A stretch of DNA of 64,000 nucleotides from an uncultured Gammaproteobacteria bacterium (lineage in GTDB: Bacteria > Patescibacteriota > Patescibacteriia > Veblenbacterales > UBA10138): the NCBI GenBank assembly GCA_964453605.1, contig CAYVOI010000001.1:166276-230275 (forward strand), written 5' to 3'. Made by a program: the position numbers and the translations under genes. Below the pieces are notes generated by a model that was given only the letters and a program-made list of their open reading frames with translations, was not told the DNA's origin and made no database searches. This document shows positions 26,159 to 62,697 of this stretch, piece by piece (position 1 is the first letter of the stretch; the number at the start of each line of letters is the position of its first letter).

Positions 26159-28177
26159 CTACCTGGTTCTCCGGGTGGCCTTTCTTTTTTTACCCGTTAG
26201 TTTGGTAACTTCTGCTAGCTGGTCCCGCAAGGTAGCCGCGCGTTCGAACTCGAGGTTCTGAGCAGCGAGCTCCATTTGGTTGGTGAGGTCCGCTGCTATG
26301 TGCTTAAGTTCTTCTGGCGGTAACTTCCCGAGTTCCAGGTGGGTAAGGTCCAACGTTTCCTCGGCACCTTTTTTACTGCCAGCGAGCCTATCGTCGGCTA
26401 TGGCGCGAACGATAGTTTGCGGTGTTATGCTGTGTTTTTGGTTGTAGGTTTGTTGCGCTTTGCGCCGGCGTTCCACCTCAGCAATGGCGCTGCGCATGGA
26501 ACCGGTGATAGTGTCGGCGTACATAATAACGTGACCCTCGGCGTGTCTAGCAGCCCGGCCCATAGTTTGAATGAGCGAGGTGTGGGAGCGTAGGAACCCT
26601 TCCTTATCGGCATCTAGAATAGCGACTAGTGATACTTCCGGCAGGTCTAACCCTTCGCGCAGCAGGTTTATGCCTACCAACACATCGTACTTGCCGAGGC
26701 GTAAGTCGCGGAGTATTTCTAAGCGTTCCATAGTGTCGACATCAGAATGTAGGTACTGCACCTTTATACCTTCGTCCTGCAGGTAGTCAGCTAGGTCCTC
26801 GGCCATGCGCTTGGTGAGCGTGGTGATGAGCACACGCTGGTGTTTCGCAATACGCGCCTTGACCTCGTCCACCAGGTTATCCACCTGGTGCTTAGTGGGT
26901 TTTATTTCCACCGTAGGGTCCAACAGCCCGGTGGGGCGAATGAGCTGTTCTACTGTGTTTTGCGAGAGCTTGCGTTCGTACTCCGCTGGGGTGGCTGAGA
27001 CGTAGATAAGCTGCTTCAGGCGCTGGTTAAACTCGTCAAAGGTCAGGGGCCGGTTGTCGAGTGCGCCAGGCACGCGGAAGCCGTAGTCTACTAGTGTTTG
27101 CTTGCGGCTGCGGTCGCCAGCGTACATGCCCCCGACTTGCGGAATGGTCATGTGCGACTCATCAATAAACACCAGCGCGTTTTTGGGGAAGTAGTCGAGC
27201 AGGGTGTAGGGTGGCTCCCCGGGCTTGCGGCCGTCGAAGTAGCGCGAGTAGTTTTCTATGCCGTTGCAGTAGCCGGTGTTTTTCAGCATTTCTAGGTCAA
27301 AGTTAGTGCGCTCTTTGAGGCGCTGCGCCTCCAAGAGCTTACCGGCTTTGGTGAATAGGGCAATTTGCTTTTCCATGTCGCGGCGAATGTCGGTAAGCGC
27401 TCCCTCAAACCGTTCGGCTGGAGCTACGTAGTGGCTGGCTGGGTACACGTCGGCCTGGGGGAGTGTGGTCACCACATCGCCCGTTAAACTGTCGCACTCC
27501 TGCAGGTTGGTTAGTTTGTCGCCGTCGTAGCTTAGGCGCAGGTACCTGTCGAGCGAGTCGGCGGGGAAAATGTCTACGGTTTCGCCGCGCACGCGGAACG
27601 TGCCGCGGTGAAAGTCCATATCATTCCGTTGGTACTGGAGCTTAGTGAGCTCTCGCAAGAGCTTTTGTCGTGGGAAGGTTAAACCGATTTTAAGAGTGAT
27701 GCGCACTTTAGCGTACTCTTCAGGGCTACCTAAGCCGTAGATGCATGAGACTGAAGCCACAATCAGGGTGTCGGGTCTCGAAAGCACACTCTGCGTGGCA
27801 GCGTGGCGGAGCCTGTCTATTTCCTCGTTCAGTTGAGTTTCTTTTTCAATGTAGGTGTCGGAGGCGGGGATGTAGGCTTCAGGCTGGTAGTAGTCGTAGT
27901 AGCTTACAAAGTAGTGCACGGCGTTTTCGGGAAAGAAACTACGAAATTCACTGGCGAGTTGGGCGGCCAGAGTTTTGTTGTGGGAGATGACGAGTGTCGG
28001 GCGTTGCACTTTGGCGACCACAGAGGCCATGGTGAACGTCTTCCCAGAGCCAGTAACGCCAACTAGGGTTTGGTGGTGCAGGTTTTTTTCTACGCCCTCA
28101 ACTAGCTTGGCAATGGCTTGAGGTTGGTCTCCCGTAGGTTTAAATGGAGCAACGAGGCGGAACTTATTTTGTGTCAT
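26159..28177 (-). CDS. uvrB: excinuclease ABC subunit B (UvrB)
   Basis: Start at internal ATG (MTQNKFRLVAPFKPTGDQPQAIAKLVEG...; E. coli UvrB begins [21 protein letters not shown]); GSGKTFT Walker A, C-terminal UVR domain ATLRDQLAEV. Confidence 0.95.
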   Translation of the reverse strand: MTQNKFRLVAPFKPTGDQPQAIAKLVEGVEKNLHHQTLVGVTGSGKTFTMASVVAKVQRPTLVISHNKTLAAQLASEFRSFFPENAVHYFVSYYDYYQPEAYIPASDTYIEKETQLNEEIDRLRHAATQSVLSRPDTLIVASVSCIYGLGSPEEYAKVRITLKIGLTFPRQKLLRELTKLQYQRNDMDFHRGTFRVRGETVDIFPADSLDRYLRLSYDGDKLTNLQECDSLTGDVVTTLPQADVYPASHYVAPAERFEGALTDIRRDMEKQIALFTKAGKLLEAQRLKERTNFDLEMLKNTGYCNGIENYSRYFDGRKPGEPPYTLLDYFPKNALVFIDESHMTIPQVGGMYAGDRSRKQTLVDYGFRVPGALDNRPLTFDEFNQRLKQLIYVSATPAEYERKLSQNTVEQLIRPTGLLDPTVEIKPTKHQVDNLVDEVKARIAKHQRVLITTLTKRMAEDLADYLQDEGIKVQYLHSDVDTMERLEILRDLRLGKYDVLVGINLLREGLDLPEVSLVAILDADKEGFLRSHTSLIQTMGRAARHAEGHVIMYADTITGSMRSAIAEVERRRKAQQTYNQKHSITPQTIVRAIADDRLAGSKKGAEETLDLTHLELGKLPPEELKHIAADLTNQMELAAQNLEFERAATLRDQLAEVTKLTGKKRKATRRTR

Positions 28178-28291
28178 AAAAGGTAGGACATGCGAGCTGA
28201 CTTGCCCCGTGGGGAACAGTCCGCCTAGTGGCGGAGAGTTCTCCTTCGGGGTCGCCCGTGGGCTTAAATGGTGCCTTGAGCTTGAACTGCA
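28163..28291 (-). other. 42-codon leader ORF upstream of uvrB whose first 14 residues (MQFKLKAPFKPTGD) mimic the UvrB N-terminus; overlaps uvrB start by 11 nt in another frame
   Basis: Manual translation of minus strand: MQFKLKAPFKPTGDPEGELSATRRTVPHGASQLACPTFYDTK*; -10 TATACT (28302..28307) lies 10 nt upstream of its ATG. Confidence 0.5.
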
Positions 28292-28301
28292 TAGGTTTAG
28301 G

Positions 28302-28307
28302 TAGTAT
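28302..28307 (-). promoter_or_regulatory. -10 box TATACT for uvrB transcript (minus strand), 10 nt before leader-ORF ATG
   Basis: minus-strand read ggtcTATACTacctaaacctATGcag. Confidence 0.45.
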
Positions 28308-28379
28308 AGACCGGTTGGCGAAGAAAAAAAATAAAGTAGCCCTCGGTCAGACTGCTTTGTCAACACGAGTTCCAAGCTC

Positions 28380-28385
28380 TATAAT
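28380..28385 (+). promoter_or_regulatory. -10 box TATAAT 6 nt before ruvA ATG (leaderless-type), divergent from uvrB promoter
   Basis: ctcTATAATgaggctATG. Confidence 0.5.
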
Positions 28386-28391
28386 GAGGCT

Positions 28392-28961
28392 ATGATAGCT
28401 CAGGTAGCTGGCAAAGTTGTTGGTAAAACGCCGCGTTCAGTGGTAGTCCAAGCTTCTGGCGTGGGCTATGAAATTTTTTGCACCAAAGACCTGCTGACGC
28501 GGCTGCCTGACGGCAAAGAGGTAGGGCTGTTTACCTACCTGAACGTGCGGGAGGACGCGCTCGAGCTCTATGGTTTTGCCAGCCAGAACGATCTAGCTTT
28601 TTTTAAGCTGCTCCTTGGTGTTTCCGGAATTGGCCCCAAGTCAGCGCTTAACATTCTAGAAGTTGCGAAGCCCGATGACATTCGCCGGGCCGTGGTGGCG
28701 CAAGATGCTGGCAACCTCCATGCTCTGCACGGCCTGGGCAAGAAGACGGCTGAGAAGTTGGTGGTGGAACTTAAAGACAAGCTGGAGGCAATAGAGCCGG
28801 GCGGCAGTACGATGAGTGACGACCAAGCTGTGCTTGAGGCGATTGTGAACCTAGGGTACTCCACCAACGAGGCCCGGAGTGCGCTACAGGCGACCAAGGG
28901 CGTTGCTGGTGGGCTAGAGGCTAAGGTTAAAGCTGCGCTTAAAGCCCTGAGCCGGTCATAG
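28392..28961 (+). CDS. ruvA: Holliday junction DNA helicase RuvA
   Basis: MIAQVAGKVVGK...VGYEIF...LYGFAS..DLAFFKLLLGVSGIGPKSALNIL. Confidence 0.9.
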   Translation: MIAQVAGKVVGKTPRSVVVQASGVGYEIFCTKDLLTRLPDGKEVGLFTYLNVREDALELYGFASQNDLAFFKLLLGVSGIGPKSALNILEVAKPDDIRRAVVAQDAGNLHALHGLGKKTAEKLVVELKDKLEAIEPGGSTMSDDQAVLEAIVNLGYSTNEARSALQATKGVAGGLEAKVKAALKALSRS

Positions 28962-54495: not shown

Positions 54496-54640
54496 AAAGG
54501 TGGTCTGACTAACAAAAAAACGCTTGAAGTTAAGAGGTTGGCCCTCACCTGTACGTCGCGCCCGTAAGGGCGGACCGGTGAGGCCCCGTGGTCCCGCAGT
54601 GCGGGATTTTACGGGGGTGGAGCGCTCAAAAAGCGCTAGC
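54496..54640 (-). promoter_or_regulatory. structured 5' leader of rpsF-ssb-rpsR operon (candidate S6:S18 autoregulatory leader)
   Basis: ~145 nt with nested hairpins (GCGCTttttgaGCGC, CCCGCActgCGGG, long-range CCTCACC...GGTGAGG) between promoter and rpsF ATG. Confidence 0.45.
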
Positions 54641-54647
54641 GGGGGGA

Positions 54648-54676
54648 AGCTTACCACAGGCCTAAAGCATTGGCAA
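54648..54676 (-). promoter_or_regulatory. promoter TTGCCA-17-TGgTAAGCT for rpsF operon (minus strand)
   Basis: minus read cTTGCCAatgctttaggcctgTGGTAAGCTtcc. Confidence 0.5.
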
Positions 54677-54699
54677 GCCCCTAACGTACAGCGCTAGCA

Positions 54700-54708
54700 T
54701 GGTATACT
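54700..54708 (+). promoter_or_regulatory. extended -10 TGGTATACT 10 nt before methyltransferase ATG, divergent from rpsF promoter
   Basis: caTGGTATACTggggctacctATG. Confidence 0.5.
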
Positions 54709-54718
54709 GGGGCTACCT

Positions 54719-59670: not shown

Positions 59671-61503
59671 TTAGCTTCTAGCCAGTGCAGCTTGGCGTTT
59701 GGCTTCGTTTTCGTCCAGTATCAGTTTACGAATGCGAACATTTTTGGGTGTAACTTCAACCAGCTCGTCAGCTCCAATGTATTCTAGAGAGTCTTCCAGG
59801 TCCATGGTGTGGGGGGTGTTGAAGTGTTCGGCGGAACCATCACCCTTGGAGCGCATGTTAGAAAGCTGCTTGGCCTTACACACGTTCACGCGAATGTCCC
59901 CTGGGCGCGAGTTCTGCCCGACCACTTGGCCCTTGTACACCTCTACCCCTGACCCAATGAACATAACGCCGCGGTCTTGCACGTTGAGAAGGCCATAGAG
60001 GTTGCTGGTGCCGCTTTCGTGCGCCACCAAGCTGCCCTGTTCGCGTTCGTGCCAGCCCCCGGGATCGGCTTGGTACTCAAAGAACATGGTGTTCATAATC
60101 CCCAAGCCGCGGGTGTCGGTGAGGAACTCAGTACGGTAGCCAAACAAACCCTTGGTCGGCACCGCAAACTCGAGGAACGTAATGCCGTTCTCCACCCGCA
60201 TTTCTTTAAGTTCGCCGCGCCGAGCGCCCAGTTTTTGTATGACTACACCAGCGTGTGCCTCGGGCACTTCAATAAATACCAGTTCATACGGTGTCAGGGT
60301 AGCACCGCCTGCTTGTTTATTGATTACCTGGGGCTGGGCGACCTGGAACTCATACCCCTCACGCCGCAAACGCTCAATCAAAATAGCCAAGTGCAGCTCA
60401 CCCCGGCCTGACACCACCCATCCGCCAGGCGGCGGTCCACTAGCGTCGTCTTCTACCCGAAGGGCCATGTCAGTTTCGAGCTCTTTGTAGAGCCGGTCCC
60501 TGACCTGCCGCGAGGTTACAAACGTGCCCTCGCGTCCGGCGAACGGGGAGTTGTTAACACTGAATGTCATTTTTACCGTGGGCTCCTCAATCTTCAACAA
60601 GGGGAGTGCTACCGGGTTCACGGGGTCAGCTACGGTTTCACCAATCGTGACGTCGGAAATTCCAGCCAGCGCCACAATGTCCCCAACGCTGGCGGAGGTT
60701 ACCTCCACCCGCCCCAAACCCTCAAACGTCATCAGAGAAACTAGGCGACACTTTTCGCTCTGGCCTTGGCGGTTGATGTGTGCCACCTCTTGCCCAGCCT
60801 TAACTGTGCCGTTCATGACCTTGCCAGTGGCGATGCGGCCCTTGAACGTGTCACCGCTGATGGTAGTAACCAAAATTTGTAAAGGCTTGTCAACCTCGCC
60901 CTTGGGCGCTGGCACGTACTTGAGGATAGCCTCAAAAATGGGGTTGATGTCCGTCATCTTGTTTAAGTCCGGCTCAAAGCCAGCTTTGCCGTCGCGGGCT
61001 GAGGCGTACACAATGGGGAAGTCGGCGGCTTCGTCGCTCGCCCCCAGTTCCACAAACAGGTCAAACGTTAGTCCGTGTACGTGGTCTATGCGGGCGTCTG
61101 GTTTATCTATTTTGTTTATGACCACAATAACCTTAAGCCCCATCTTAAGTGCCTGCTTTAGCACGAACCTGGTTTGGGGCATGGGGCCTTCCTTAGCATC
61201 CACCAGCAGCAGACAGCCGTCGGCCATGGTGAGTACGCGCTCTACCTCGCCGCCAAAGTCGGCGTGGCCGGGGGTGTCGATGATATTGATCTTGGTCCCT
61301 TGCCAGTTTATGGAAGCGTTCTTAGAGAAAATGGTGATACCGCGCTCACGCTCCAGCTCATTTGAATCCATGATCAATTCCTTGCTCTCCATTTCCTTAC
61401 CGAGCTTGGTTTTAGATTGGCGCAGCAAAGCATCGACCAGGGTAGTTTTACCATGATCGACGTGTGCAATGATAGCTACGTTACGAATGGAATTAGAGGT
61501 CAT
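59671..61503 (-). CDS. typA: translational GTPase TypA/BipA
   Basis: Start at ATG 61503 (MTSNSIRNVAIIAHVDHGKTTLVDALL...); EF-G-like domain series. Confidence 0.93.
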   Translation of the reverse strand: MTSNSIRNVAIIAHVDHGKTTLVDALLRQSKTKLGKEMESKELIMDSNELERERGITIFSKNASINWQGTKINIIDTPGHADFGGEVERVLTMADGCLLLVDAKEGPMPQTRFVLKQALKMGLKVIVVINKIDKPDARIDHVHGLTFDLFVELGASDEAADFPIVYASARDGKAGFEPDLNKMTDINPIFEAILKYVPAPKGEVDKPLQILVTTISGDTFKGRIATGKVMNGTVKAGQEVAHINRQGQSEKCRLVSLMTFEGLGRVEVTSASVGDIVALAGISDVTIGETVADPVNPVALPLLKIEEPTVKMTFSVNNSPFAGREGTFVTSRQVRDRLYKELETDMALRVEDDASGPPPGGWVVSGRGELHLAILIERLRREGYEFQVAQPQVINKQAGGATLTPYELVFIEVPEAHAGVVIQKLGARRGELKEMRVENGITFLEFAVPTKGLFGYRTEFLTDTRGLGIMNTMFFEYQADPGGWHEREQGSLVAHESGTSNLYGLLNVQDRGVMFIGSGVEVYKGQVVGQNSRPGDIRVNVCKAKQLSNMRSKGDGSAEHFNTPHTMDLEDSLEYIGADELVEVTPKNVRIRKLILDENEAKRQAALARS

Positions 61504-61598
61504 ACTTGTTTTGCCGTGGCCTGCCCCGTAGTTCCGCCCCAAGCGGATACTGTGGGGTCGACGTGGGCGATGATAGCAACATTACGGATGTTCTGCAT
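61500..61598 (-). other. 32-codon leader ORF upstream of typA: MQNIRNVAIIAHVD + tail; residues 4-14 mimic TypA residues 6-16 with only synonymous differences; stop overlaps typA ATG (ATGA)
   Basis: Manual translation of minus strand: MQNIRNVAIIAHVDPTVSAWGGTTGQATAKQV*; a (D/G)HGKT-coding remnant follows in the typA frame after a 35-nt non-homologous segment. Confidence 0.5.
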
Positions 61599-61654: not shown

Positions 61655-61683
61655 ATGATAGGTGGAATTGCGCGCGCTGTCAA
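61655..61683 (-). promoter_or_regulatory. sigma70-like promoter TTGACA-17-TATCAT for typA (minus strand)
   Basis: minus read ggTTGACAgcgcgcgcaattccaccTATCATggc. Confidence 0.6.
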
Positions 61684-61830: not shown

Positions 61831-62697
61831 CTACGCGGGGCGAGCAAGGTTCGAGATTGGTTTTGGATACTTCCGGGAGGCACCAGCGCCAAGGTGGCAG
61901 CCACGGACGTTATCCATGGAGTAGCTCATGCTGAACCCATCAGAACCGAGGTAGCCACCTTCGAAGCGGAAAACGTCCGAAGAAAGGTCCTTACACCGAG
62001 CATACCGATTGGGGTTGGCTCGTACTCCTGTTTTCTTGAAGTAGTGGAACGACTTCACGGTTTCCTCGATGGCGAGTGGAAGCTCGTAGTCAGCGCCCAC
62101 CATGACTTGCTGCTCCGGGGTGGTCTTGTTTTCTGACTTCGGCACAATCTCAATGTGCGTCAGGTACCACCGCAGCTCCATCGTTACCGTGGCAAGGTTC
62201 TGGTCACTGTACCCGGCGTTGTCGTAGGTGTAGAATTTGGGCTGTCCTGTGGATGGGTAGAACTCCCTGAACTTCACGATGGAGAGCTTCTCGCCCTTGA
62301 TTTCCTCAAGCCCGACGTGGGCAAAGTGGCAATCGCGCACGGTTTTGCCACACAGCGGGCAGGTGGACAGCAGCACCTCCTCGTTCCAGGGGAATAGCGC
62401 CAGCTCCTTGAGCTGCTTCTTGGTGTAGATGCCACCGTAGGTGGCAACCCAGTCTTCGGGGCCCCAGTAGTTTTTGCCCATGATGGCACGGGCAATACGC
62501 TGGTCGAGCGAGGGTTCGATGCCCCGACGGAGCATGAAGTTGGCGACCTTTTTGTTGAACGGGTCATTCTCATCATCAAGCTGAGTGATGATAGCAGCAC
62601 CTTGGCTACCGAGGTTATTGAACAGCTTGCTCAGGGCAGTGTTATGCTTTCCCACGGGAACTGTCCAAACAGTTCCTTCTTTTGGTGAGTTTGGCAT
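61831..62697 (-). CDS. hypothetical protein (288 aa) with CxxC...CxxxH putative metal site
   Basis: SD AAAGGAG 7 nt upstream; CPLCGKTVRDCHFAH motif; no family recognised. Confidence 0.55.
   Translation of the reverse strand: MPNSPKEGTVWTVPVGKHNTALSKLFNNLGSQGAAIITQLDDENDPFNKKVANFMLRRGIEPSLDQRIARAIMGKNYWGPEDWVATYGGIYTKKQLKELALFPWNEEVLLSTCPLCGKTVRDCHFAHVGLEEIKGEKLSIVKFREFYPSTGQPKFYTYDNAGYSDQNLATVTMELRWYLTHIEIVPKSENKTTPEQQVMVGADYELPLAIEETVKSFHYFKKTGVRANPNRYARCKDLSSDVFRFEGGYLGSDGFSMSYSMDNVRGCHLGAGASRKYPKPISNLARPA

Follow-up and report, generated by a model that had tools for sequence, protein, structure and literature searches.

Duplicated gene starts around a palindromic core at uvrB and typA in CPR bacteria: a candidate 5'-end replacement cassette

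Replacement of a gene end by integrating DNA is known from phage 21 at the icd gene of E. coli and from islands at the 3' ends of tRNA and tmRNA genes. In these systems, as in e14 at icd, the insert supplies a replacement gene end and the displaced native end stays beside it as a fragment. Direct repeats of the gene end flank the insert, one of them contiguous with the functional gene, and most differences between these repeats are synonymous. Recombination between the copies of e14/icd leads to loss of the insert and regenerates an intact chimeric gene (PMC13626634). Homing introns, inteins and the T4 gene 60 bypass with mobA are selfish-looking insertions that occupy the best-conserved codons of their conserved host genes, occur patchily among close relatives and come with a device of their own by which the host gene continues to function. 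REP, REPIN and MITE-like repeats (RAYT REP, Rickettsia palindromic elements, Correia) are short GC-rich imperfect palindromes with conserved ends and a variable centre, present in several copies per genome as lineage-specific variants; they can lie within or beside a gene and leave it intact, and REP carries a CTAC/GTAG tetranucleotide beside its stem. Bacterial leader peptides and coupled uORFs, including the mycobacterial leaderless uORFs (PMC4633059, bioRxiv 10.1101/834739), are short ORFs that end at the main start.

The window, the whole 64-kb stretch of DNA analysed from a contig of 876 kb, contains two clear and one or two weak copies of a palindromic core, and each clear one stands between two copies of a gene start. 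A search of the literature, incomplete in coverage, found no description of this arrangement. The original prediction that uvrB and typA are each preceded by a leader ORF copying the gene's own N-terminus holds at both genes. At uvrB, ATG1 lies at 28292 with TATACT 10 nt upstream, and the true ATG at 28177 follows 115 nt downstream. The locus is composed as follows.

28303..28308, minus strand: TATACT, native uvrB -10-like hexamer; near-leaderless start
28251..28292, minus strand: copy 1, read as the displaced native start, 14 codons, MQFKLKAPFKPTGD; its final C also belongs to the core
28199..28251, minus strand: core, 53-nt GC-rich imperfect palindrome, CCCCG...TCCGCC-ACTA-GGCGGA...CGGGGCAAGTC
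28178..28198, minus strand: spacer from core to real ATG, keeping CTACCT of the native promoter-proximal sequence
28127..28177, minus strand: copy 2, functional start joined directly to the gene, 17 codons, MTQNKFRLVAPFKPTGD, N-terminus of B type
28164..28292, minus strand: uORF, 42 codons, copy 1 and then read-through of the core, out of the uvrB frame
26159..28177, minus strand: uvrB coding sequence, 672 aa, Pfam UvrB_inter, Helicase_C, UvrB and UVR

The UvrB of the window matches P0001 at 100% identity and begins MTQNKFRLVAPFKPTGDQPQ at 28177; the Veblenbacteria UvrB cluster holds 17 sequences, with a length of 670 aa in 13 of the 15 matches listed. Copy 1 agrees with the start of P0002, the closest relative without an interruption, MPFKLQAPFKPTGD. 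The geometry of the -10 is the same in the empty-site relative L082 (TAAAAT) and in L083 (TAAACT), each 9 nt before the ATG, and the spacer at 28178..28198 contains no good -10. At typA, the predicted TTGACA-17-TATCAT promoter and 32-codon ORF are likewise present, with ATG1 at 61598 and the true ATG at 61503, 95 nt downstream.

61655..61683, minus strand: native typA promoter, 11/12 consensus positions, leader of ~50 nt to ATG1
61557..61598, minus strand: copy 1, read as the displaced native start, 14 codons, MQNIRNVAIIAHVD
61518..61557, minus strand: core, 40-nt palindrome, CCCCACAGTA-TCCGC-TTGGG-GCGGA-ACTACGGGGCAGGCC
61504..61517, minus strand: spacer
61456..61503, minus strand: copy 2, functional start, 16 codons, MTSNSIRNVAIIAHVD
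61500..61598, minus strand: uORF
59671..61503, minus strand: typA/bipA coding sequence, 610 aa, Pfam GTP_EFTU, BipA_C and EFG_C

The real TypA begins MTSNSIRNVAIIAHVDHGKTT at 61503. The empty-site relative L088 shows TTGACA-17-TACTAT at the position equivalent to the typA promoter, and its uninterrupted protein P0122 has the same amino acids as copy 1, with 7 nucleotide differences, all synonymous (counted by hand). Both uORFs of the window overlap the authentic start as claimed, the stop lying 14 nt into the gene at uvrB and forming the TGA of ATGA at typA. The tally of 10 synonymous versus 2 non-synonymous codon differences was reproduced as well (4 + 2 at uvrB, 6 + 0 at typA). The start MQ common to both uORFs was also seen, but it is a coincidence; the native N-termini of relatives read MP, MN, ME or MK. 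No other gene of the 64-kb window was found to have an upstream copy of its own start; an upstream-copy score of 14 at rpsT was a false lead.

The sequence between the N-terminal copies, which was overlooked at first, is the same element at both genes. The window cores are imperfect palindromes of 40-53 nt with the form 5'-CCCC(G/A)...hairpin...ACGGGGCA(A/G)G-3'. The ends read 5'-CCCC(G/A) ... (Y)AC(G/A)GGGC(G/A)(A/G)(G/C)-3' family-wide, and inverted ends CCCCG/CGGGG are present in every intact core, extended to 9-10 nt in L093 and L085. The motif TCCGC-loop-GCGGA..ACGGGGCA occurs in the window at these two sites only, with 0.00 expected from 100 shuffles, and among the eight families of local direct repeats listed for the window, those of uvrB and typA take the first and third places. 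Folding yields one hairpin with ATG2 outside it; that of the uvrB core reaches -30.3 kcal/mol (z = -4.75). Covariance model R1 gives 40.7 bits for the uvrB core and 35.7 bits for the typA core, both sequences belonging to its training set. Conservation of the core ends extends over different genes and over hosts of 38-62% GC, and the apical stem shows compensatory changes (CCTGCC/GGCGGG versus CCCGCC/GGCGGG; UCCGC/GCGGA versus UGCCG/CGGCA). The core is read in differing frames at different loci. The distance from the 3' box to ATG2 varies from 18 to 52 nt (counted by hand), and the 3' box was therefore rejected as a fixed -35 element. Rfam gave no match at the gathering threshold and noise only at E up to 10, and no ribozyme, intron, riboswitch or ribosomal-protein leader model matched the cassette loci. 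One further candidate was found in the window.

54580..54619, minus strand: possible third core, divergent, CCCCGTAAAATCCCGCACTGCGGGACCACGGGGCC, ~85 nt upstream of rpsF; weak candidate (R1 13.1 bits, E ~1), with no recognisable gene-start copy upstream

The core resembles the REP-type repeats in its palindromic build, conserved ends and variable centre, several copies per genome, lineage-specific variants and the CTAC/GTAG tetranucleotide beside the stem. Unlike the core, REP sequences lie mostly after genes and have no flanking target repeats of 25-60 nt. The core has the terminal inverted repeats of a MITE but not its target-site duplication, which is short, of fixed length and initially identical. 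The available DNA showed neither a RAYT nor a transposase.

Comparison of related genomes, which the original prediction had called for, revealed the arrangement in several other lineages and its absence from the closest relatives. At the same uvrB codon, six other CPR lineages carry related elements with the 3' box CGGGGCGAG. Cores with the same ends were found at uvrB in L083, L084, L085, L086 (also L087, L096 and L102) and L104, and a decayed core in L108. The typA core of L089 lies at a codon different from that in the window, and a yebC core is present in L093 (also L094 and L098). Altogether, the cassette occupies three genes and four target sequences, including two typA codons, and the core interrupts a conserved housekeeping gene after 8 to 17 codons. 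In the ten occupied lineages, 35-102 nt separate copy 1 from ATG2, and this interval holds only the read-through ORF and no recombinase. A pattern scan of metagenomes gave 13 matches, about the number expected by chance, of which five are real (L093, L094, L096, L098 and L102) and eight have no flanking repeat; it exposed yebC as a new target. A flanking-repeat score separates real cores (12-23) from chance pattern matches (5-11). Viral contigs yielded nothing but two chance matches.

The closest relatives lack the uORF. L082 (UvrB 89% identical) and L088 (TypA 91% identical) are empty sites whose N-terminus equals copy 1, and in L105, the 91% identical sister of L084, uvrB is uninterrupted with an N-terminus equal to copy 1 of L084. 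The upstream copy is also absent at ~60 distant uvrB loci, a negative control taken from a full-length UvrB scan of genome contigs whose listed matches are at most 62% identical. Among the uvrB loci examined, all seven of B-type carry the core or the 3' box, and both of A-type have neither. In a UvrB tree limited to homologues in which the PTGDQP motif can be recognised, B-type genes are scattered among A-type sisters. Two loci are layered or decayed. L083 shows a decayed A-type relic behind the native promoter, followed by an intact B-type copy, the core and a B-type gene; in L108, copy 1 and the 5' box are gone, and the 3' box, spacer, TATAAA and ATG2 remain. The upstream copy can thus decay with the gene retained. 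The presence or absence of the cassette differs between close relatives, a pattern that suggests a mobile element.

The two copies were compared at nine loci. The flanking repeats comprise 23-51 nt of coding sequence plus upstream DNA of variable length and are 67-83% identical. The repeat reaches upstream of the ATG, and similarity within a locus exceeds that between loci (p = 0.004). Over 101 codons, 48 synonymous and 14 non-synonymous differences were counted, including AGT/TCT and AGA/CGT pairs. A diversity-generating retroelement was rejected, as the differences are third-position changes of all kinds and not adenine-specific; no reverse transcriptase was found near the window loci, and fragments of one occur in L108 and at no other locus. 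Copy 1 is intact at all nine loci where the adjoining core is intact.

Codon composition differs between the copies. Copy 1 has host-like GC3 (counted by hand), 0.77 at uvrB versus 0.65 for the gene, and copy 2 deviates in every host: 0.38 versus 0.65 at both uvrB and typA of the window, 0.31 versus 0.67 in L083, 0.44 versus 0.79 in L085 and 0.56 versus 0.35 in L084. The downstream copy is the real start and is best read as incoming, and the upstream copy, together with the native promoter, is best read as the native start that was displaced. The original suggestion of a 5' tandem-duplication remnant fits the presence of two 5'-end copies, but not the conserved palindromic element between them, nor the absence of the arrangement from the closest relatives, nor copies that look to be of different lineages by GC3 and N-terminus type, with one cassette common to distant hosts.

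That cassette is shared by L084 and L104. Their gene bodies have a nucleotide identity of 70% and an amino-acid identity of 71% (third positions 0.54), and the intergenic DNA is 53% identical, yet they have in common a tract of 107 nt that is 94% identical. It covers the final 15 nt of copy 1 (15/15), core and spacer (55/59) and the initial 33 nt of copy 2 (31/33), beyond which identity falls to 13/18 and then 0.75. Copy 2 of L084 bears the FILKSS motif typical of the L104 clade, and copy 1 is the N-terminus of the empty sister. The tract suggests horizontal exchange of segments below the scale of a gene among uncultivated reduced genomes. Co-conversion tracts were also sought between the window genes and their empty-site relatives, a comparison that was uninformative with third positions ~50% identical everywhere. 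Third-position identity is ~0.5 even at 89-91% amino-acid identity; as synonymous sites are saturated between all available relatives, the window insertions are not datable.

The uORF that starts in copy 1 is 28-48 codons long and runs through the palindrome. Its stop lies within -8 to +15 of ATG2 at 8/9 loci, compared with 6/18 control frames (p = 0.013), a weak control since stops cluster near AT-rich starts in any frame. A frameshift model was rejected, as the distances from ATG1 to ATG2 occur in all three phases. Like the known coupled leaders, the uORF begins at or near the transcript 5' end and ends at the main start codon. Unlike them, its first 8-17 codons are homologous to the gene's own N-terminus, the remainder is unconserved read-through of the palindrome, and the uORF as a whole is not kept among close relatives.

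We propose that each locus is probably an insertion and not primarily a regulatory design: a horizontally moving 5'-end replacement cassette with a palindromic core, in which the leftover start serves as a coupling uORF. The core and downstream copy behave as a unit of 95-150 nt. The part 3' of the core, consisting of promoter-proximal DNA, the ATG and the first 8-17 codons, is contiguous with the gene and is its working start. A new cassette would arise when a core inserts near a promoter and the segment from promoter to insertion point is duplicated. Cassettes may then spread between lineages by recombination, with the flanking conserved codons (PTGD|QPQ, AHVD|HGKT and SGHSKW|H) as putative short homology arms, the same logic by which homing introns and inteins sit in conserved motifs. 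Ribosomes would start at the native ATG1, cross the palindrome, stop at or beside ATG2 and re-initiate there. Some cassettes have a -10 of their own, TATAAA 6-9 nt before ATG2, and may give a second, leaderless transcript.

The proposed cassette shares with e14/icd the arrangement of displaced and replacement ends, but it replaces the 5' end, including promoter-proximal DNA and start codon. It also differs in its small size without a recombinase or other gene, in ends ~35-102 nt apart and not kilobases, and in the use of one core at four target sequences. With homing introns, inteins and T4 gene 60 it shares the conserved codons, patchy distribution and protection of the host gene. It differs in that protection comes from a spare start and N-terminus and not from splicing or ribosome hopping, in having no endonuclease gene, and in that intron, intein and ribozyme signatures were not found.

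Several points count against this proposal. Pfam/NCBIfam scans of neighbouring ORFs found no transposase, integrase or nuclease in or next to cassettes, and no transposase was among the 10 proteins scanned. Recombination at only ~70-75% sequence identity is normally very rare. The horizontal case rests on one clear pair, L084 and L104, where local constraint could mimic part of the signal, and the intact copy 1 at 9/9 loci could mean selection and not youth. In addition, the uvrB and typA cores of one genome are alike, which gene-specific transfer of cassettes does not predict.

A more tentative reading is an undescribed class of CPR mobile elements, with a core of ~40-85 nt whose insertion site would lie in the very first nucleotides of a transcription unit. 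Its target would possibly be promoter DNA that is melted or bound by RNA polymerase, and each insertion would duplicate or import the whole segment from promoter to insertion point. The 5' ends of essential leaderless genes would be colonised harmlessly in this way, and gene-specific cassettes would then spread between lineages with conserved codons as homology arms. In a yet bolder version, ribosomes would bypass the cassette and both N-termini would be expressed.

That the arrangement is instead a conserved cis-regulatory leader seems doubtful. Here an old 5' duplication would have been kept, the leaderless uORF and hairpin would control the gene, and a common trans-acting factor would bind the hairpin. 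The stop beside ATG2 at 8/9 loci, the core ends held over genes and hosts of 38-62% GC, the compensatory substitutions in the apical stem, the intact copy 1 and the resemblance between cores of one genome all agree with such a leader. However, it is missing from the closest relatives of three occupied lineages, its typA position differs between two lineages, and no Rfam family matches. The uORF peptide after the copy is unconserved and the frame of the core differs by locus. No terminator-like site was found at uvrB or within the typA leader, the sole one in the typA scan lying upstream of the promoter. The gene of L108 is kept without copy 1 or the 5' half of the palindrome, and a core upstream of rpsT begins 2 nt after the -10, so that the transcript would lack the 5' arm. 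The original idea of a regulatory leader peptide therefore survives in part: the uORF is probably translated and probably couples to the real start, as its stop position indicates, but it is no conserved attenuator, having neither a conserved peptide after the copy nor a terminator or antiterminator, and being dispensable in L108.

It is improbable that the loci are scars of larger integrative elements, in which an attP with a substitute 5' end integrated and later deletion of the cargo left attL and attR adjoining. The replacement end, displaced native end and mostly synonymous differences would agree with e14 icd/icdC (PMC13626634), and layering like that of L083 is what repeated integration at a single att site typically leaves. 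Against this, all ten occupied lineages retain only 35-102 nt, with no cargo or integrase, and the same core ends at four targets in three genes would demand one recombinase with four specificities.

We consider it very unlikely that translational bypass or RNA-level excision joins copy 1 to the gene body, with both N-termini made and selected. The final codon of copy 1, from whose last base a stable hairpin begins, would be the take-off codon, and it matches its copy 2 equivalent in 8/9 loci (GAC/GAC, GAC/GAT or CAC/CAC). A join there always yields a normal protein, and the copy differences are almost only synonymous. The gap would measure 100-153 nt, whereas that of T4 gene 60 is 50 nt. The codon after copy 1 is always CCC or CCG and never a stop, GAC triplets occur inside the gap, as at uvrB, and the codons are unmatched in L089 (ATT versus ATA). 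Copy 2 moreover retains its own ATG and a promoter-like -10, copy 1 is dispensable in L108, and ribozyme and intron models gave no match.

An assembly artefact by collapsed strain variants or a chimeric join, for which the largely synonymous differences had been the only argument and no support was found, is refuted by Logan assembly L001 (SRR12313479), 100% identical over 6,165 bp across the uvrB junctions, by the same architecture with differing sequences in other organisms, in assemblies from NCBI, JGI, ENA and Logan (at least eight further genomes, each assembled independently, and among them the Veblenbacteria UvrB cluster), and by the conserved non-coding palindrome between the copies.

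If the proposed replacement cassette is confirmed, genes that are conserved and probably indispensable can tolerate a tiny element within their coding region and need no splicing, by means of a spare promoter-proximal region, start codon and N-terminus that the element brings or creates. The cassette would also account for the two classes of N-terminal length between which UvrB, TypA and YebC alternate in closely related CPR bacteria. For studies of how translation terminates and re-initiates behind a leaderless uORF, the loci provide natural material from organisms where translation signals are poorly known. Gene callers read through cores and produce N-terminally extended proteins (P0148, 631 aa; P0026, 694 aa), and they annotate uORFs as genes, such as a 29-aa gene in L085.

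Both uvrB and typA, whose identities were confirmed by Pfam, lie on the minus strand of the window and are provided with two starts. A displaced upstream gene start (copy 1, ATG1) opens an ORF (uORF) that copies the N-terminus of the gene, and the real, working start (copy 2, ATG2) follows downstream:

28292, minus strand: uvrB ATG1, 10 nt 3' of TATACT, start of a 42-codon ORF MQFKLKAPFKPTGD...
28177, minus strand: annotated UvrB start MTQNKFRLVAPFKPTGDQPQ, 115 nt 3' of ATG1
61683-61655, minus strand: typA promoter TTGACA-17-TATCAT, 11/12 consensus positions matched
61598, minus strand: typA ATG1, ~50 nt after the promoter, start of a 32-codon ORF MQNIRNVAIIAHVD...
61503, minus strand: real typA start MTSNSIRNVAIIAHVDHGKTT

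These leader ORFs, claimed in the original prediction, are real and reproducible, with coordinates, promoters and stop overlaps in agreement. The uORF stop overlaps the real start at both genes, and a recount of the copied segments gave the same 10 synonymous versus 2 non-synonymous codon differences. The uvrB and typA repeats are first- and third-listed among eight local direct-repeat families of the window, which is part of an 876 kb NCBI contig of Patescibacteria (CPR). The nearest named relatives of the organism are annotated Candidatus Kerfeldbacteria.

uvrB and typA have a segment of one kind between the copies (55-75 nt), a GC-rich imperfect palindrome termed the core; the core and the downstream copy together form the cassette. 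In both cores CCCC stands directly 3' of the last copied codon, followed by a long imperfect hairpin (TCCGCC-ACTA-GGCGGA in uvrB, TCCGC-TTGGG-GCGGA in typA) and a closing 3' box, ACGGGGCA(A/G)G. The combined motif has two sites in 64 kb, uvrB and typA only, with 0.00 expected from shuffles. The uvrB hairpin (-30.3 kcal/mol, z = -4.75) is far more stable than shuffled sequence, and the typA hairpin (-17.9 kcal/mol, z = -1.67) is not clearly beyond it. No Rfam family match to the cores was found, and neither a recombinase nor a nuclease lies in or near any cassette examined.

Comparison with related genomes, one of the checks proposed originally, revealed the same architecture in other organisms. 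The uvrB cassette is carried by the loci L083, L084, L085, L086 and L104 (UvrB identity of 85%, 75%, 74%, 72% and 69%, respectively), and the L086 locus was seen again in L087, L096 and L102. The UvrB cluster of L086, annotated Candidatus Veblenbacteria, has 17 members, with 670 aa in 13 of the 15 listed. In the common layout, a short N-terminal copy ending ...PTGD is followed by CCCCG, the palindrome, (Y)ACGGGGCGA(G/C), a spacer of ~13-36 nt and the real ATG. In the typA locus L089 (TypA 74% identical), these core ends recur at another codon than in the window; its copy 1 is MINIRNIAI, with the core directly after ...GCGATTA. A metagenome scan with the core ends yielded a third target gene, yebC (Pfam TACO1/YebC), in which the core separates copy 1 ATGTCCGGTCACAGTAAATGGCA from ATGTCAGGGCATTCTAAGTGGCAC...; the yebC copies show six nucleotide differences, all synonymous, AGT versus TCT among them. 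The core junction is invariably A followed by CCCC(G/A), and the targets ending there differ (GGCGA, GTCGA, GATTA, TGGCA). True cores were cleanly separated from chance pattern matches by flank similarity. The two window cores are more alike than either is to the orthologous uvrB cores elsewhere, an indication of spread within the genome or of co-evolution with a host factor. The cassettes lead public annotation astray: P0148 (TypA, 631 aa) and P0026 (UvrB, 694 aa) are extended upstream, in frame through the core (for example ...TRTLRGET... from CTACGGGGCGAGAC), and the uORF at L085 1406-1495 is annotated as a 29-aa gene.

Several relatives are empty, that is, without the cassette. The closest uvrB relative, L082 (89%), reads promoter-ATGCCCTTCAAGCTCCAAGCCCCGTTCAAACCTACGGGCGACCAACC uninterrupted. 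The closest typA relative, L088 (91%), starts MQNIRNVAIIAHVDHGKTT, identical in amino acids to window typA copy 1, with seven nucleotide differences, all synonymous by hand count. Similarly, L105, the 91% identical sister of L084, is uninterrupted, and its N-terminus is amino-acid-identical to L084 copy 1. It follows that the native start is the upstream copy and that the arrangement represents an insertion polymorphism. Neither an upstream copy nor anything similar was found in ~60 distant uvrB loci. The UvrB N-termini of the clade are of a short A type (MxFKLxAPFKPTGD) or a B type three residues longer. The core or its remains were present in 7/7 B-type loci examined and both A-type loci examined were empty. 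In a neighbour-joining tree that leaves out the N-terminus, B-type genes are interspersed with A-type sisters. Third-position GC (GC3) of copy 1 is host-like by hand counts. For copy 2 versus host gene, GC3 is 0.38 versus 0.65 in each of window uvrB and typA, 0.31 versus 0.67 in L083 and 0.44 versus 0.79 in L085, and it deviates the opposite way in the AT-rich L084 (0.56 versus 0.35). The repeat takes in some DNA 5' of the ATG, and similarity is higher within than between loci (p = 0.004). In a TypA homologue from a 5.9 kb NCBI contig (P0206), the P-loop reads AHVDPGKTT, not AHVDHGKTT; this His-to-Pro change is at the exact start position of the window typA core (between GAC and CCC), and could be the trace of a cassette lost imprecisely, or just a variant.

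Between L084 and L104, the uvrB bodies have 70% nucleotide and 71% amino-acid identity (third positions 0.54), and the upstream intergenic DNA has 53%. Nevertheless, the two loci have a common 107-nt tract that is 94% identical.

Identity between L084 and L104 by segment
Copy 1, last 15 nt: 15/15
Core and spacer: 55/59
Copy 2, first 33 nt: 31/33
Copy 2, next 18 nt: 13/18
Gene after copy 2: ~0.75

The tract edges are at equivalent positions of copy 1 and copy 2. All four core differences fall in the apical stem-loop and keep the predicted stem; L084 has an extra 20-nt hairpin. L084 copy 2 carries FILKSS, typical of the L104 clade, and its copy 1 is the N-terminus of the empty sister L105. The simplest reading is that the L084 lineage, once separated from L105, received a cassette from an L104-like lineage. 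In L083, a native promoter is followed by a decayed A-type relic (MFKLELTSKPAYT*), an intact B-type copy, the core and a B-type gene, a layering that looks like two successive events. Synonymous sites are saturated between all available relatives, which prevents dating. In L108, the sister of L086, the upstream region is rearranged: copy 1 and the 5' box survive in degenerate form, and the 3' box, spacer, TGCTATAAA and ATG2 are retained. Therefore, copy 1 and the complete palindrome are dispensable for the gene, and presumably the cassette's own promoter-like sequence can suffice. In several cassettes a -10-like hexamer lies 6-9 nt before ATG2 (TATAAA in L084, L104, L086 and L108, TATAAC in L083), with the geometry of the native near-leaderless promoters. 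Split reverse-transcriptase ORFs (L108 114-871, minus strand; YCDD motif; RVT_1, E = 2e-5) occupy the place of ruvA, at the very spot where decay has struck copy 1 and the core's 5' half.

At 8/9 loci the uORF runs on across the core, and its stop falls no more than 7 nt upstream or 14 nt downstream of the A of ATG2, compared with 6/18 control frames (p = 0.013). At every locus it either uses a different frame from the gene or ends shortly before the gene. Window uvrB and typA would be expressed largely from the native promoter, with termination and re-initiation at ATG2, since there is no Shine-Dalgarno sequence at either real start and no good -10 in either window cassette. Next to an intact core, copy 1 is always intact, and the copies differ by 48 synonymous and 14 non-synonymous changes over 101 aligned codons. 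This fits a functional start that a foreign homologue has recently displaced; selection on both copies, in a regulatory or bypass role, would equally fit the intact copy 1 and the mostly synonymous differences. Replacement predicts protein N-termini MTQNKF... and MTSNS... alone, and bypass or splicing predicts MQFKLKAPFKPTGDQPQ... or MQNIRNVAIIAHVDHGK... The earlier leader-peptide explanation holds as far as a probably translated leader, but the key feature is a palindromic element family associated with 5'-end replacement, polymorphic and at least occasionally horizontally transferred. A 5' tandem duplication likewise accounts for the partial 5' duplication but misses the palindromic element between the copies. 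Collapsed alleles or an assembly artefact are contradicted by the Logan assembly of SRR12313479, which spans the uvrB junctions with 6,165 bp of identical sequence, and by the same architecture with other sequences in independent NCBI, JGI, ENA and Logan assemblies.

The searchable literature yielded no account of such an arrangement. Closest in logic are elements such as e14 at icd, an integrative element that carries a substitute gene end and leaves an icdC fragment (PMC13626634), whereas the cassette is 100-fold smaller, at the 5' end and without a recombinase. The cores resemble REP- or MITE-like palindromes but have neither short identical target duplications nor the typical REP/MITE location. 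Homing introns and inteins likewise occupy highly conserved codons with a patchy distribution; however, the cassettes have no splicing signature.

Promoter-proximal position may be the common denominator of the cores, because some also exist without a coding duplicate (L086 rpsT and a weak window rpsF candidate). The rpsT core (L086 4695-4741, the same as L096 11223-11269), CCCCGAACCAGATCCGCACAGGACGGAACGGTACGGGGCATAG, lies ~105 nt upstream of the gene and begins 2 nt past a TTGACA-17-TACACT promoter, at the transcription start and without coding duplication; the uvrB core of this genome, at a distance of 3 kb, is of a different subtype. In the window, two core-like GC-rich palindromes (54580-54619 and 54672-54715, both minus strand) lie within the 223 nt separating rpsF (ATG 54495, minus strand) from a divergent methyltransferase gene (start 54719, plus strand). 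The first of these, CCCCGTAAAATCCCGCACTGCGGGACCACGGGGCC, is a weak candidate that resembles a diverged member of the family, with no copy of a gene start beside it. The second coincides in part with TATACT, the -10 of the methyltransferase gene. Another long hairpin and a T-run lie between these palindromes and rpsF.

The ruvA gene, divergent from uvrB, has a TTGTCA-17-TATAAT promoter (28357-28394, plus strand) whose -10 ends 6 nt before the ATG, and is therefore probably leaderless. Near-leaderless starts are also found at uvrB and at the methyltransferase gene (54719). The ruvA-uvrB intergenic region is variable, with no extra small ORF in the window and one or two in L082 and L083, one of which encodes a cysteine-rich 153-aa protein:

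L082 1905-2366: extra small ORF, no recorded Pfam match
L083 1831-2244 and 2495-2707: extra small ORFs, no recorded Pfam match

Between an ABC-transporter gene and typA, the window holds a 288-aa ORF (61831-62697, minus strand) with no Pfam or NCBIfam match; in L088 and L089, typA directly follows the ABC-transporter gene.
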